In this document: in pieces, positions 45,001-48,000 of the stretch
Layout of the letters: every line of letters begins with the position of its first letter
Numbering within the stretch: the first letter of the stretch is position 1
Origin: Candidatus Aenigmatarchaeota archaeon
Lineage (GTDB): Archaea > Aenigmatarchaeota > Aenigmatarchaeia > CG10238-14 > SCSR01
Assembly (NCBI GenBank): GCA_038998335.1
Contig: JAVZHQ010000001.1
Coordinates: 1-64,000, forward strand
Direction of reading: 5' to 3'
Length of the DNA stretch: 64,000 nucleotides
Position numbers: made by a program

Positions 45001-48000
45001 CGCACAAAACTTTTATTTCTGGATTAATTCTGTAAATTTCTTCGACAAATTCTTTAACACTATCAGGCTTTACTTTTGATATAGCCTTTCCACTTCCGAT
45101 TAAAATAGGATCCTCGTAAGCTATAAAATTCGGCTTAAATTTTGCGATTTCCTTTCCTTTTTCCAAGCTATCAGCGCAAACTACTGAAATAAGCTTGTAT
45201 TTCCTGAGCAATTCTACACGTTTTCCTATTTCTTCTAACTCAAGCTTTTTTTCTGAATGGTTTATTAAGCTTCCTTTTACTCCGTATTCTTTTAAAACTA
45301 ACAAAGAAACGTGTCCAGTAAAAGCTCCATATTCTATTGCGTCAACGTGCTGAGCAAAAACTGGTATTTTAACTTTTCTTGCAAGATAAAGGTCGGTAAA
45401 TTGTGGAGCAATAGCTATGTTAATTCTATAGTTTCTTGCAACTTTCTCGCAAATTTTTGTTAGCTTTAAAGCATTTTCTCCTGTAGCTTCTCTGTAGCAT
45501 TTAAAGTTAACAAGTATTAAAGGAAGTTTCATAATTTATTTTGTATCAGTCAAAATAAATAATCTTTAGTAAATGTTTACCACCTTAGTGGTAGGTAAAC
45601 TACTTATTTACATACTATCAAGTGGCCTAAGATGGGATCCGAAAGTCCATCAGAAAAAATAAAAATCCGTAGTTTACCTTTAGAAGAAAGAATAAGACTA
45701 TATAACAAAGCAATCGATCTACACAAAAAATATGGTTGGGGATATGTGCGCATAAGCAAAAAACTCTCTGTTCCAATAGATGTTGTCAGGCATTGGTTAT
45801 ATTATGGAAGAATTCCAATTCGCCAAGGGCATCCCCATTTATTTGAGCCAACACCAAGCCCTGAATTAGCATATGTAATAGGAGTTGTTCTAGGTGATGG
45901 AAATTTAAGTCAAAGGAAAAAAAGTGGTGAAAGGTCTGGAAGGGTAATTAGACTAAGAGCAAGAGACAAAGAATTCGTAGAAAAGTTTGCTTTAGCCATG
46001 AGCAAATTGCTCAGAAAGAGAAAACCCTACAAGGTCGTATTTGAAAATAATCAATATAGAGTTTATGGTTATAGCTTTTATCTCTTTGAATTTTTGAAAA
46101 AACAATTCGATACATTAAAACCATTCATCGAAGCTTATCCGACAGAATTTATTAAAGGTGTTGTAGATAGTGAGGGAAGCGTGAAAATAAGTGTCTGGCG
46201 ATGGAAAACTTACAGAGCTTTAACAGTAAATGTGGCTATTACAAATACAAATTTAGAATTATTGTTATATGTTCATGAGCTTTTAAGAAAACATTTAGGA
46301 ATAGAAAGTATTATTAAGCCTAGCTATAAAGCAGGAAGCAAATTTTGGAGGAATGGTAAAGAATTTACTCGCAAAAAAGACATGTATGATTTAGTAATAA
46401 CTAAATTAAATGATGTGAAACTCTTTGCTTCTCGTGTGGGGTTTTCAATAAAAAGGAAACACCAAAAGTTGCTTGATGCAATTAGGATATGTGAAGATTT
46501 CAAATCTGGGGAAGAGCGAACTGAGGCTTGGTTAAAACTTTATAAAAAGAAAAATGGAAGGTGGGCAAGAATAAAGTAATATTAAAGTTTAAAAACAAAT
46601 AAATAATATGAGCGAGAAAATTACGGTATCTTTAATAAAGGCTGACATAGATGGCTCATAGGAGCCAGTGTAAGCAGCCTTGTAGGGCATGGGAGAGTTC
46701 ATCCGGATATAATCAAAACAGCAGAAGAACTTTTACAAAAAGCAAAAGACGAGAATTTAATAATAGATTTTTTTGTCACCAACTGTGGAGACGATTTAGA
46801 ACTTATAATGACTCATCAAAAATTTATAGAGAACCCAGAAATTCATAAGCTTGCTTTTGATACTTTTATGAAATGCGCAGAAATAGCTAAATCCTTAAAG
46901 CTTTATGGAGCAGGCCAAGACTTGCTTAAAACTGCTTTCTCTGGCAATATAAAAGGTATGGGCCCAGGAGTTTGTGAAATAGCTTTTGAGGAAAGAAAAA
47001 GCGAGCCAATAGTTTGCTTTATGGCAGATAAAACAGAGCCAGGAGCCTGGAACATGGCTTTGTATAAAATATTTGCCGATCCTTTTAACACTCCAGGCCT
47101 AGTTATAGATCCGAGCATGCATTCAGGTTTTTCCTTTGAGGTTCATGATTTGTTTGAACATAAAAAGATAAGGTTTTCAGCTCCCTCAGAAATATATGAT
47201 TTACTTGTTTTTATAGGAGCTCCAGCAAGGTACTGTATAAAATCAGTTTTTAGGAACTCAGATAACGAAATTGCAGCTGTTTCTTCTACCGATAGGCTAA
47301 GCCTAATCGCAGGTCATTATGTGGGAAAAGATGACCCGGCTTTAATAGTAAGGGCTCAGTCTGGTTTCCCAGCTGTTGGTGAAATTTTAGAACCTTTCGC
47401 CTTTCCTTATCTTGTAGCAGGAGGAATGCGTGGTTCTCATAATGTTCCTCTCATGCCAGTAAGTTTAAAAGATGCTCATCCTACACGATTTGATGCGCCA
47501 GCCAGAGTTATAGCTTTAGGATTTCAGCTTAATAATGGAAAATTACAAGGTCCGGTAGATTTATTTGATGACCCTGCCTTCGATTATGTAAGACAAAAAT
47601 GTAACGAAATAATGGATTACATAAGAAAACACGGAACCTTTGAGCCTCATCGCTTACCCTTGGATGAAATGGAATATACAACTCTGCCAGAAGTTAGAAA
47701 AAGGCTTGAAAGTAGGTTTGAAAAATTAGGTTAGTGTTTCTTGATGAACTCTGTCAAAACCCTTGCTTTAAAATCAGAAATTATACTCATAAAGTTTACA
47801 AAACCATCTTGAGGAGTTGGAAAACAAGAGAAATATTTATGTACATCACCATCTCCCCACCATTTTGTACAACAATAATATAAATGGTCACTAATCTGTA
47901 AGAGTCGCCATATTCTTGTTAGCTCAGGATTGTTCAAGCTTTTGATAGCTTTTTCAAGGTTTTTTAACTCTTCGAAACAAACTTGTTGCATTCTGTTACC

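Follow-up and report, generated by a model that had tools for sequence, protein, structure and literature searches.

A candidate selfish cassette of a free-standing LAGLIDADG endonuclease gene and a BHB mini-intron in an Aenigmatarchaeota archaeon

In the genome of a Candidatus Aenigmatarchaeota archaeon (hereafter G000, with contigs C1 and C2), the free-standing LAGLIDADG endonuclease gene g00035 and the 23-nt BHB mini-intron of the adjoining fbp gene probably form a single selfish cassette made of two parts, as probably do, on sequence comparison, the nuclease/intron pairs at rtcB, albA, uS10, tRNA-Phe and tRNA-Asn. By analogy, such pairs may well be the archaeal counterpart of the "nuclease plus protective insert" cassettes of phages. 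The survey's finding had been that six free-standing LAGLIDADG genes each precede an intron-bearing gene (fbp, rtcB, albA, uS10, tRNA-Cys and tRNA-Phe), nuclease and intron being read, at the boldest, as a two-part mobile element. All six pairs, with the nuclease genes directly ahead of essential genes, were found again in sequence, as was a seventh involving the previously unclassified gene g00713 (Table 1). Concerning the element itself, nucleases and introns do behave as linked, mobile and optional DNA, while relatives of g00035 found beside intron-free genes speak against the generality of the proposal.

Genomes and loci compared

Loci of G000, which has been described as a tiny hot-spring archaeon, were compared with those of a set of 118 genomes, in which G090, a sister genome of the same genus, is the closest relative. 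The window is the whole 64-kb stretch of C1 that was analysed, and its position 1 is position 1 of the contig. The fbp gene is present in 33 of the 118 genomes; rtcB counts refer to the best 30 loci of the 101 genomes with a match, and albA counts to 30 loci. Because the genomes compared are kin of one another, all these locus counts overstate independence.

Table 1. Positions of the features discussed and basis of their assignment
Feature	Position	Strand	Basis
Triosephosphate isomerase gene; left breakpoint of the exchangeable nuclease-fbp module at its start codon (45532)	C1 44864..45532	-	Pfam TIM, E 6e-41
11-nt direct repeat AAATAAATAAT, upstream copy	C1 45553..45563	+	Repeat search, 15-locus spacer comparison
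g00035, free-standing monomeric two-domain LAGLIDADG homing-endonuclease gene	C1 45632..46579	+	Pfam LAGLIDADG_3, E 1e-11
11-nt direct repeat, downstream copy, abutting the fbp ATG	C1 46597..46607	+	Repeat search, 15-locus spacer comparison
fbp exon 1, 14 codons plus 1 nt, MSEKITVSLIKADI-G	C1 46608..46650	+	Frame and homology to relatives
fbp BHB mini-intron, 23 nt	C1 46651..46673	+	Sequence reading plus BHB scan
fbp exon 2 (fructose-1,6-bisphosphate aldolase/phosphatase); stop is the right breakpoint of the module	C1 46674..47734	+	FBPase_3, E 1e-153
g00115/rtcB pair, rtcB 18-nt intron	C1 120826-120843		BHB scan, relatives' alleles
g00738/albA pair, albA 31-nt intron	C1 675480-675450		BHB scan, relatives' alleles
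g01013/uS10 pair, uS10 29-nt intron	C2 127937-127965		BHB, relatives' alleles
g00445/tRNA-Cys pair			Rfam tRNA match, 42 bits
g00709/tRNA-Phe pair, tRNA 5' end	C1 650930
tRNA-Phe 17-nt canonical BHB intron, position 9/10	C1 650921-650905
g00713/tRNA-Asn pair, 15-nt canonical BHB intron	tRNA position 8/9
EndA gene	C1 649574-649852		PF01974, 95 bits
Tenth, borderline LAGLIDADG-like ORF	C1 508904-510310		21.2 bits

An inserted cassette at the fbp locus

The inserted cassette spans about 45564-46607 (1044 nt) and lies exactly in front of the fbp ATG, with one 11-nt repeat on either side. Only two copies of this repeat occur in the window, versus 0.44 expected, and the spacers of 15 loci show that relatives free of the nuclease carry the motif immediately 5' of the fbp ATG. 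Downstream, the fbp frame is broken at about 46650, and the intron begins 72 nt beyond the g00035 stop. Its BHB is canonical, with an outer helix of 7 bp (AAGGCUG/CAGCCUU), a central helix of 4 bp (ACAU/GUGU), two bulges of 3 nt each (AG|A and AA|G) and an inner helix of 6 bp (UGGCUC/GAGCCA) with a 4-nt loop. The predicted spliced junction, KADIG|SLVGH, is the reading of 29 intron-free relatives, and the intron site lies in the best-conserved 22-nt window within the first 174 nt (0.77 vs about 0.67). A homologous 21-nt intron occupies the same site in G089, and RNAalifold folds both introns into one shared BHB with three compensatory pairs, a count based on two sequences only.

A nuclease gene or its remnant is present at all three interrupted fbp loci (G000, G089 and G069) versus none of the 29 assessable intron-free ones. 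The G089 nuclease gene is frameshifted, and the G069 insert lies 4-5 nt away from the G000 intron site; we found in it no canonical BHB that would yield the junction expected from its genus-mates. A "stop inside" the G090 gene was also considered as an intron and rejected, as this gene is contiguous.

Up to 45532, identity between G000 and G090 is 94.8%; past this point the two cannot be aligned, and homology resumes at 47721 on the right. Metagenome contigs break at the same left point, with the right joint at 47731. The whole module of nuclease and fbp has been exchanged between these two genomes, the breakpoints falling at the edges of the flanking genes, and both module types occur side by side in four hot-spring metagenome runs. 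Nucleotide comparison with the nearest alleles caught no recent homing event at fbp, as G000 is only 81-85% identical to G030, G093 and G089, with no clear mosaic. The 96-97% identity of fbp proteins reflects purifying selection.

An I-DmoI-like nuclease upstream of fbp

The reading frame of g00035 is intact and encodes 315 aa, which match PF14528 with 45.2 bits (cut-off 22.5), with an additional weak match over the first domain. I-DmoI is the nearest solved sequence (E 2.4e-5): both LAGLIDADG motifs align to it, and both catalytic acidic positions are retained. The family alignment shows D89 of motif 1 (VIGVVLGDG) to be invariant among nine members, and position 181 of motif 2 (FIKGVVDSEG) to be E or D throughout. 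In the AF2 model (pLDDT 88), the LAGLIDADG alpha-beta-beta-alpha-beta-beta-alpha fold is present twice, and the best Foldseek matches are E-DreI, I-DmoI and I-Tsp061I (probability 1.00; TM for I-DmoI 0.70-0.76 on target length). A helical DNA-binding region is predicted at the N-terminus, with helices at residues 17-57 of the model. From sequence and model, g00035 looks like an intact I-DmoI-like nuclease.

Nuclease/intron pairs in other protein genes

The rtcB intron lies 222 nt beyond the g00115 stop and has a canonical BHB with a weak outer helix. Its predicted junction is that of 21 intron-free alleles; those of G090 and G093 read PDMHFGYGFPIGGV. Among the best 30 loci, nine have the intron and 21 lack it. 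Full nuclease genes are found at three of the nine, plus one 25-aa remnant, and at none of the 21, where one dead half-gene was detected (G096); these counts exactly reproduce those of the survey. Nuclease remnants at rtcB are carried by G074 and G096. The first 330 nt of G000 rtcB are 93.7% identical to G032, which belongs to another genus, versus 85.8% to the sister genome G090, and the values further 3' are 93.6% and 94.5%, respectively.

In albA, the intron is located 52 nt past the g00738 stop, its BHB is canonical, and its junction is confirmed by 28 intron-free relatives. It is present at two of 30 loci (G000 and G075), with a nuclease in G000 only and at none of the 28 intron-free loci. 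As no g00738 orthologue above 36% identity was found among the 118 genomes, albA provides only one nuclease-bearing locus.

The uS10 intron, 174 nt past the g01013 stop, has a relaxed BHB in which a 2x4 internal loop replaces one bulge, and its junction is confirmed by two intron-free alleles (G090 and G089). Known homologues had suggested an intron of 41 nt; once these alleles had been read, it was dropped in favour of the 29-nt intron defined by its BHB. In G092, central pairing of the uS10 intron is retained through a one-sided change (CCCG to CCUG).

Introns of all four protein genes are in strongly conserved motifs. In the locus comparison, G090 lacks nuclease and intron jointly at albA, rtcB and uS10. 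We also considered that the LAGLIDADG proteins might be domesticated, either binding DNA to regulate the downstream gene or helping to splice its intron (maturases), instead of being mobile nucleases. HTH-type regions in several of them, such as the N-terminal helices of g00035, and the tight same-strand coupling to the downstream gene would fit such a role, and LAGLIDADG maturases exist for group I introns. Nonetheless, domestication is most improbable given the patchy presence of the genes between sister genomes, their frameshifted and truncated copies, the catalytic acidic residues retained throughout the family, and the persistence of the same introns, with intact BHB, in genomes without the nuclease protein (rtcB in G092 and G032, uS10 in G092, albA in G075).

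Pairs at tRNA genes

At tRNA-Cys, the TGA stop of g00445 forms nucleotides 8-10 of the tRNA, and the intron is at the canonical position. The survey had noted that G090 lacks g00445 and keeps the intron; this holds true, and G093 is in the same state. On this comparison, the tRNA-Cys intron predates its nuclease, and the pair says nothing either way on the cassette reading. Next to the nuclease, the D-arm of the G000 tRNA shows 4-5 substitutions, including a compensatory pair, and it may be these, not the intron, that differ.

The tRNA-Phe gene has two introns, and the one at position 9/10 ends in the stop codon of g00709; the 5' end of this tRNA had been put at 650914 and is corrected in Table 1. 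In G092 and G089, the intron is kept and the nuclease is absent.

At tRNA-Asn, G093 lacks both nuclease and intron. In G000, an intron-free remnant of the original gene (its 5' 19 nt) persists ahead of the nuclease ORF, at the exact place where the intact tRNA of G093 starts; its end falls in the D-loop, some 10 nt away from the intron site. When the DNA preceding every nuclease gene was searched for 5' exon copies, only this remnant and the fbp 11-mer stood out, and none was found at rtcB, albA, uS10, tRNA-Cys or tRNA-Phe.

ARAGORN can read the tRNA-Asn locus as a single tRNA with an 800-nt intron, and the nearest solved relatives of g00035 include the intron-encoded I-DmoI and I-Tsp061I. Both facts would be expected if the pairs were rearranged descendants of classical mobile archaeal introns, whose ORF moved out of the BHB intron and whose intron shrank by deletion, with no present-day cooperation. 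We regard this origin as improbable: the nuclease genes are located upstream of the start codon or of the tRNA 5' end, not between splice sites; the tRNA-Asn copy on the downstream side is complete and has a 15-nt BHB of its own; and at albA, G000 differs from G090 by two separate clean insertions, one of about 800 nt and one of 31 nt, on either side of exon 1.

Association across the genome and among relatives

Intergenic distances are short everywhere in this gene-dense genome, rich in introns and nucleases, and 20 of the 46 tRNAs called by ARAGORN are flagged as intron-bearing, a figure that is noisy, so that chance association deserves consideration. It is hardly credible, as four protein genes with homology-verified introns directly follow nuclease genes, and nestedness is observed independently by comparison at fbp, albA and rtcB. 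With a base rate of about 30 intron-bearing genes in 1130, a rate taken from the survey's count, the probability of six pairs out of eight is about 1e-8, and by our own arithmetic that of six out of nine is still about 6e-5 at a base rate of 10%. A de novo BHB census (18,227 hits for the loose motif, 333 for a stricter one, and 3,122 left by an ORF-rescue filter) is too noisy for counting intron-bearing genes. As previously stated, g00027 and g00631 have no intron-bearing neighbour in G000. Nor does the tenth, borderline ORF, which has no same-strand downstream gene either.

Sequence comparison among relatives indicates that the nuclease is nested within intron presence and that nuclease genes decay or vanish while the intron stays, and it suggests that the two travel together. 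Full 5' nuclease genes beside an intron-free target were found at none of 29 fbp, 28 albA and 21 rtcB loci, nor at the intron-free same-genus loci of uS10 and tRNA-Asn.

These 78 fbp, albA and rtcB loci bear on another explanation, in which the nucleases are ordinary free-standing endonucleases practising "intronless homing". Each would recognise its own empty insertion site or another part of the neighbouring gene, immunity would come from the insertion or from substitutions, and the mini-intron would be a linked passenger (co-conversion) or present by chance. Relatives of g00035 (37-43% identity) are indeed found in convergent orientation at the 3' end of intron-free fbp in four genomes (G032, G029, G075 and G090), and in G070 one immediately precedes an aCPSF gene that has no intron; such nucleases can therefore persist beside an intron-free gene. 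The age of the tRNA-Cys intron and the D-arm substitutions of that tRNA point in the same direction, and whole-module exchange with breakpoints at gene ends requires no role of an intron. Against this, if the intron were neutral, recombinants with a nuclease and no intron would be expected, as the two are 52-222 nt apart, and no full nuclease gene is present at any of the 78 loci. Moreover, the introns occupy the motifs of highest conservation, which homing endonucleases usually choose, while the nuclease insertion sites are poorly conserved spacers, and the same layout recurs at six different targets. Intronless homing thus appears rather unlikely to us.

Proposed mechanism

Under the preferred cassette reading, the I-DmoI-like nuclease would cut intron-free alleles of the adjoining conserved gene at or near the intron insertion site. 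Hints of such a cut are indirect: the tRNA-Asn remnant ends close to the intron site, and the fbp intron site lies in the best-conserved window. Judging from the mosaics and scars, the break would be repaired from the cassette-bearing copy, and the cut allele would thereby acquire the intron together with the short 5' exon and, in many cases, the nuclease gene. The carrier would be immune because its recognition site is interrupted by the mini-intron. EndA and the ligase RtcB of the host, both encoded by G000, are predicted to remove the intron from RNA through its BHB, and the insertion would thus be free of host cost. The upstream same-strand position of the nuclease gene may keep the target gene expressed, and as nuclease and intron lie within 0-222 nt of each other, this layout would cause them to be rarely separated. 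Later, as comparison among relatives shows, the nuclease gene decays or is deleted, leaving the intron as an orphan.

Tentatively, and with somewhat less confidence than for the pairs themselves, free-standing LAGLIDADG nucleases acting in trans could be a general engine for planting and spreading short BHB introns, both in protein genes of archaea and at non-canonical tRNA positions, each orphan mini-intron being the immunity scar of a past nuclease invasion. If so, this would extend to the cbf5 intron and to the numerous introns of rtcB, uS10 and albA that lack a nuclease.

Comparison with known systems

The MobA/gene 60 insert system of phages was reportedly first described in 2011. The nearest known system is the T4-type MobA endonuclease with the 50-nt translational-bypass insert of gene 60 (bioRxiv 10.1101/2022.08.31.505936). 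As portrayed there, it resembles the G000 pairs in that behind a free-standing nuclease gene come a short copy of the target region, borne by the element, and a small insert at a strongly conserved position, three parts that travel as one cassette (bioRxiv 10.1101/2022.08.31.505936). Likewise, gene expression is the level at which the insert is neutralised, the insert shields its carrier from the nuclease, a protection only proposed for G000, and in many cases the nuclease has become a pseudogene or disappeared whereas the insert persists. The two differ in that the G000 insert is an RNA intron predicted to be handled by host tRNA-splicing enzymes, unlike the ribosome skipping described for the phage, and the nuclease is LAGLIDADG instead of HNH. 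Furthermore, the G000 host is a cellular archaeon, not a phage, with at least six different targets in one genome.

The phage nucleases F-CphI and MobE presumably cleave alleles that lack the intron, at the position where it inserts. In G000, seven loci similarly show a free-standing nuclease gene adjoining a gene with an ORF-less intron, and nuclease and intron are co-inherited, as is reportedly the case in the phages. The introns are protein-dependent BHB mini-introns of 15-31 nt, not self-splicing group I ribozymes, and they are located on an archaeal chromosome, where cleavage is only predicted. F-CphI reportedly neighbours a group I intron in psbA of cyanophage S-PM2, and mobE is reportedly associated with the defunct I-TevIII intron. 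Such phage cases are described as collaborative or trans homing (PMC6083498, PMC2790892).

Mobile archaeal rRNA and tRNA BHB introns encoding their LAGLIDADG endonucleases (I-DmoI, I-Tsp061I and I-PorI type) share with the G000 pairs their nuclease lineage, splicing motif and host enzymes. In G000, by contrast, the nuclease ORF lies neither within the intron nor anywhere in the interrupted gene, the introns are so short that they have no room for a coding sequence, and protein-coding genes are among the targets.

The seg/mob endonucleases of T-even phages practise intronless homing, with immunity from base substitutions in the target. As in G000, their genes are reportedly inserted between genes next to the target and drive gene conversion of flanking DNA, and they mark the borders of exchanged modules, as the fbp module swap between G000 and G090 illustrates. 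The difference is that, in the present case, most carriers show an intron in a conserved motif not far from the nuclease gene.

Significance

A search of the literature, supplements of the bioRxiv preprints cited here excepted, returned no published report of a nuclease gene paired with a host-spliced mini-intron. Short archaeal introns are too small to encode a nuclease, and their route to new sites is open, as a study of the cbf5 intron states (PMC2738675). A 2026 survey of Asgard tRNAs likewise concludes of introns that "how they arrive remains open" (bioRxiv 10.64898/2026.10.13.758758). A nuclease next door, with the intron as immunity device, would offer a concrete and testable route for the spread of BHB introns. 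If this is true, the predicted cut sequence of each nuclease is the intron-free junction of its neighbour, which would provide a set of natural thermophile meganucleases with predicted targets. The phage principle of a nuclease plus a protective insert would then reach cellular archaea, and host RNA splicing would be a third way of neutralising the insert, beside self-splicing and ribosomal bypass.

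The insertion before fbp

In the genome under study (G000), the frame of fbp shifts after codon 14, where a mini-intron with a bulge-helix-bulge (BHB) splicing-endonuclease motif is located. Its parts are a 7-bp helix (AAGGCUG with CAGCCUU), a central helix (ACAU with GUGU), bulges with predicted cuts AG/A and AA/G, and the inner hairpin UGGCUC-AUAG-GAGCCA. The minimum-free-energy fold contains the two outer helices and lacks the 4-bp central one. RNAalifold on two sequences, the fbp introns of G000 and of its congener G089, recovers the BHB exactly; in three base pairs both partners differ.

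The spacer between fbp and the divergent triosephosphate isomerase gene (TIM) is free of nuclease genes in 13 of the 15 loci having this arrangement; it then mostly measures 30-83 nt (362 nt in G039), and ends with AAAATAAATAAT-ATG in several genera. In G000, the spacer is intact up to a first copy of AAATAAATAAT and a second copy stands directly before the fbp ATG, these being the only two in the window (0.44 expected). Thus, the cassette bearing the LAGLIDADG gene g00035, ~1044 nt long, has been inserted cleanly and exactly in front of the start codon, and 72 nt separate nuclease gene and intron.

Features of the nuclease/intron loci (contig C1 of G000 unless stated; slash, predicted junction)
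Feature	Position	Strand	Remarks
g00027	39878-40885	+	335-aa ORF; HTH_23 E 8e-4; faint LAGLIDADG_2 E 0.04
Formate/nitrite-transporter-like ORF	40925-41725		uninterrupted
Upstream AAATAAATAAT copy	45553-45563	+	end of intact TIM-fbp spacer
g00035 ORF	45632-46579	+	315 aa; Pfam LAGLIDADG_3 E 1e-11, second half
Downstream AAATAAATAAT copy	46597-46607	+	after nuclease cassette
fbp	start 46608	+	class V fructose-1,6-bisphosphate aldolase/phosphatase, E 1e-153
fbp BHB mini-intron	46651-46673	+	textbook BHB; predicted bulge cuts give KADIG/SLVGH
rtcB intron	120826-120843		L001 2827-2844; within metal-binding motif
tRNA-Cys D-arm	371548-371566		L004 ~2549-2567
endA	649574-649852	-	splicing endonuclease gene
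Tandem acceptor-strand copies	650945-650922; ~653925-653905	-	from sequence
g00713	653867-654676	-	upstream of tRNA-Asn; ORF runs through tRNA 5' half
G075 albA	C13:7700-7954		L099

A profile search gives a second, weak LAGLIDADG match in the first half of g00035. Its nearest solved relative by sequence (E 2.4e-5) is I-DmoI, an endonuclease encoded within a BHB intron of archaeal 23S rRNA, and both catalytic acidic positions are preserved. G88-D89, G176, D179, S180 and G182 are invariant in the family alignment (n = 9), position 181 being E or D. In the AlphaFold2 model (pLDDT 88.4), a region of three helices at the N-terminus precedes two alpha/beta domains, and Foldseek groups the model with E-DreI, I-DmoI and I-Tsp061I. 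From sequence and model, g00035 appears to encode a functional monomeric homing endonuclease.

Nuclease genes and introns in relatives

We found fbp in 33 of the 118 genomes of the order and compared all 32 foreign loci, including one too short to judge and four with less than 400 nt of upstream sequence. Only two hold a nuclease gene or remnant between TIM and fbp: G089, with a g00035 homologue (63% identical, frameshift near residue 273), and G069, with a 47-aa C-terminal remnant (E 3e-4). Exactly these two have an interrupted fbp. The G089 gene carries a 21-nt BHB intron at a site identical to that of G000; in G069, a frame-shifting 37-nt insert lies 4-5 nt further on, in which a canonical BHB was sought and not found. 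The remaining 29 assessable foreign fbp loci are contiguous, with no 5' nuclease gene.

The other nuclease/intron pairs claimed for G000 in the survey's finding were each re-found in sequence. Introns of rtcB (PDMHFGY/GFPIGGV), albA (VG/RKP) and uS10 (CGDGT/GHG) all interrupt conserved motifs. Among the 30 best of 99 genomes with an albA match, a homologous 31-nt intron is present in two loci (G000 and G075), of which only G000 has the nuclease gene; the other 28 are intron-free and nuclease-free (0/28), and ten G000 nuclease queries gave no match within 1.5 kb of them. Among the 30 best of 101 for rtcB, nine loci bear an intron, three with a full nuclease gene (G000, G081 at 75% and G048 at 65% identity) and one, G074, with a 25-aa remnant, versus no full gene in the 21 intron-free loci, where G096 retains a dead C-terminal half. 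These rtcB counts match those first reported. Both parts are jointly absent from G090, the closest relative of G000, at albA, rtcB and uS10. Compared with G090, the albA locus of G000 has two clean insertions 80 nt apart, the nuclease gene (~800 nt) and the 31-nt intron. At rtcB, both parts are also missing from G093, and in G092 the identical 18-nt intron occurs with no nuclease gene; at uS10, both are missing from G089 too, G092 has a 27-nt intron only, and the G091 locus is 99% identical to that of G000.

RtcB ligates exons once the BHB has been cleaved. As its own gene is BHB-interrupted, new RtcB could therefore be made only with RtcB already present, if splicing occurs as predicted. A different rtcB intron, ~20 nt long and placed 2-3 nt further downstream than that of G000, is found in G080 (L158) and G081 (L170). 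The latter has its homologue of g00115, the rtcB nuclease gene, upstream of rtcB; one nuclease lineage goes with two rtcB intron types at neighbouring sites. The intron-bearing albA of G075 has an extra 18 nt in exon 2, with two TAA codons, and this stretch may be a second mini-intron.

With g00035 as query, a search of the order gave matches in 18 of the 118 genomes. The intron-free fbp genes of G032, G029, G075 and G090 each have, convergent at their 3' end, a homologue with 37-43% identity. Other neighbours of the family are a DRG-type GTPase gene, acetyl-CoA synthetase, SOD, SRP54, the RtcB 3' end and an aCPSF gene; the last, in G070, has the nuclease gene upstream on the same strand and no intron in its first 400 nt. 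The family therefore habitually joins conserved genes, not always with an intron. The main rival reading, in which the nuclease has some other target and the intron is simply carried along, draws support from these 3' nuclease genes and from G070, but leaves unexplained the absence of a full 5' nuclease gene from all 78 intron-free loci (fbp, albA and rtcB).

tRNA genes

The 17-nt intron of tRNA-Phe, at position 9/10, ends in the stop codon of the nuclease gene itself (g00709). Both parts are present in G090, and G092 and G089 retain the intron without the nuclease gene. At tRNA-Cys, the stop codon of g00445 forms tRNA nucleotides 8-10; this nuclease gene occurs only in G000. The tRNA-Cys intron had been noted in G090 without g00445, which holds, and G093 is alike; the pair is uninformative. 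The G000 tRNA-Cys D-arm shows 4-5 differences from G090 and G093, two of which form the compensatory pair G10>A / C25>U, and G10>A makes the TGA stop of g00445; these changes may represent immunity by substitution instead of by an intron.

Next to tRNA-Asn, g00713 behaves as the LAGLIDADG genes do, being upstream of a tRNA with a mini-intron (15 nt, at 8/9). A Pfam profile search found no nuclease family in it and weak HTH-type matches only; on visual inspection, its YFPDF...IVEC block resembles PD-(D/E)XK. Both parts are present in G090 and neither in G093. On the upstream side of g00713, at the very point where the intact G093 tRNA begins, lies an intron-free tRNA 5' end of 19 nt (GCCCTCGTAGCTCAGTTGG), and a complete intron-bearing tRNA-Asn lies downstream. 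Therefore, nuclease gene, new 5' part and intron probably entered together a D-loop break in an intron-free tRNA-Asn, ~10 nt from the intron site.

Tandem partial 5' acceptor-strand copies, GGGACAGTcgtagGGACAGTA and GCCCTCGcaGCCCTCGTA, lie just upstream of both tRNAs with introns at 8/9-9/10. Such a copy exists too in the nuclease-free G092 and G089 (L144, L146), and may be an older insertion scar. Different introns of ~21 nt are found in the anticodon stem of G093 tRNA-Asn (L148) and near the T-arm of G092 tRNA-Phe (L144), and in G093 tRNA-Phe (L145) a large insert precedes the anticodon loop. Judging from these comparisons, tRNA intron positions turn over quickly within the genus.

Exchange of nuclease-bearing blocks

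G000 and G090 are 94.8% identical over the 3.5 kb leading to the TIM start codon (45532), versus 86.8% from 47721 onward. Between these breakpoints, 2188 nt in G000 and 2158 nt in G090 are unalignable: G000 carries the nuclease gene and intron-bearing fbp, and G090 a 52%-identical fbp, then a convergent nuclease gene. The same joint occurs in contigs of four other hot-spring runs (depth 23-99), which match to 45532, continue with 2165 other letters and resume at 47731. Minor metagenome contigs (depth ~14, ~98% identical) have the G000 form, with nuclease gene and intron; all runs containing the stretch are labelled hot-spring metagenome. Two fbp modules coexist in nature, and the unit of exchange is the nuclease-bearing block.

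The 5' 330 nt of G000 rtcB (without intron) are 93.7% identical to G032, from another genus (284/303), versus 85.8% to the sister genome G090 (260/303); at positions 375-700, the values are 93.6% and 94.5%, respectively. By these identities, G000 rtcB is a mosaic whose breakpoint falls ~100-130 nt past the intron.

Homing elements and their proposed life cycle

Six or seven nuclease/intron pairs occur together in this genome of 1.009 Mb (33% G+C, nine contigs; the window covers the first 64 kb of C1). LAGLIDADG_3 matches also lie within open frames of 793-2046 aa on C1 (e.g., 439077-442439, 534640-536769 and 711081-714716), which suggest numerous inteins, with several in each host gene. Homing elements of the two kinds, inteins and nuclease genes, are unusually abundant in G000. 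The nuclease-like genes that have no intron-bearing gene beside them include g00027, upstream of a transporter-like ORF. The endA gene lies ~1 kb from the tRNA-Phe/g00709 locus.

In a full-text literature search, we found no paper tying free-standing LAGLIDADG genes to BHB mini-introns. The pattern consists of nuclease genes only with introns, introns often alone, decaying nucleases, both parts present or missing jointly when sister genomes are compared, and scars and mosaics; the life cycle of a homing element predicts this if the mini-intron is the immunity device. Point for point, the archaeal pattern matches the phage MobA/gene 60 cassette as a preprint describes it (bioRxiv 10.1101/2022.08.31.505936). 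It also appears to agree with the collaborative homing known from group I introns of phages.
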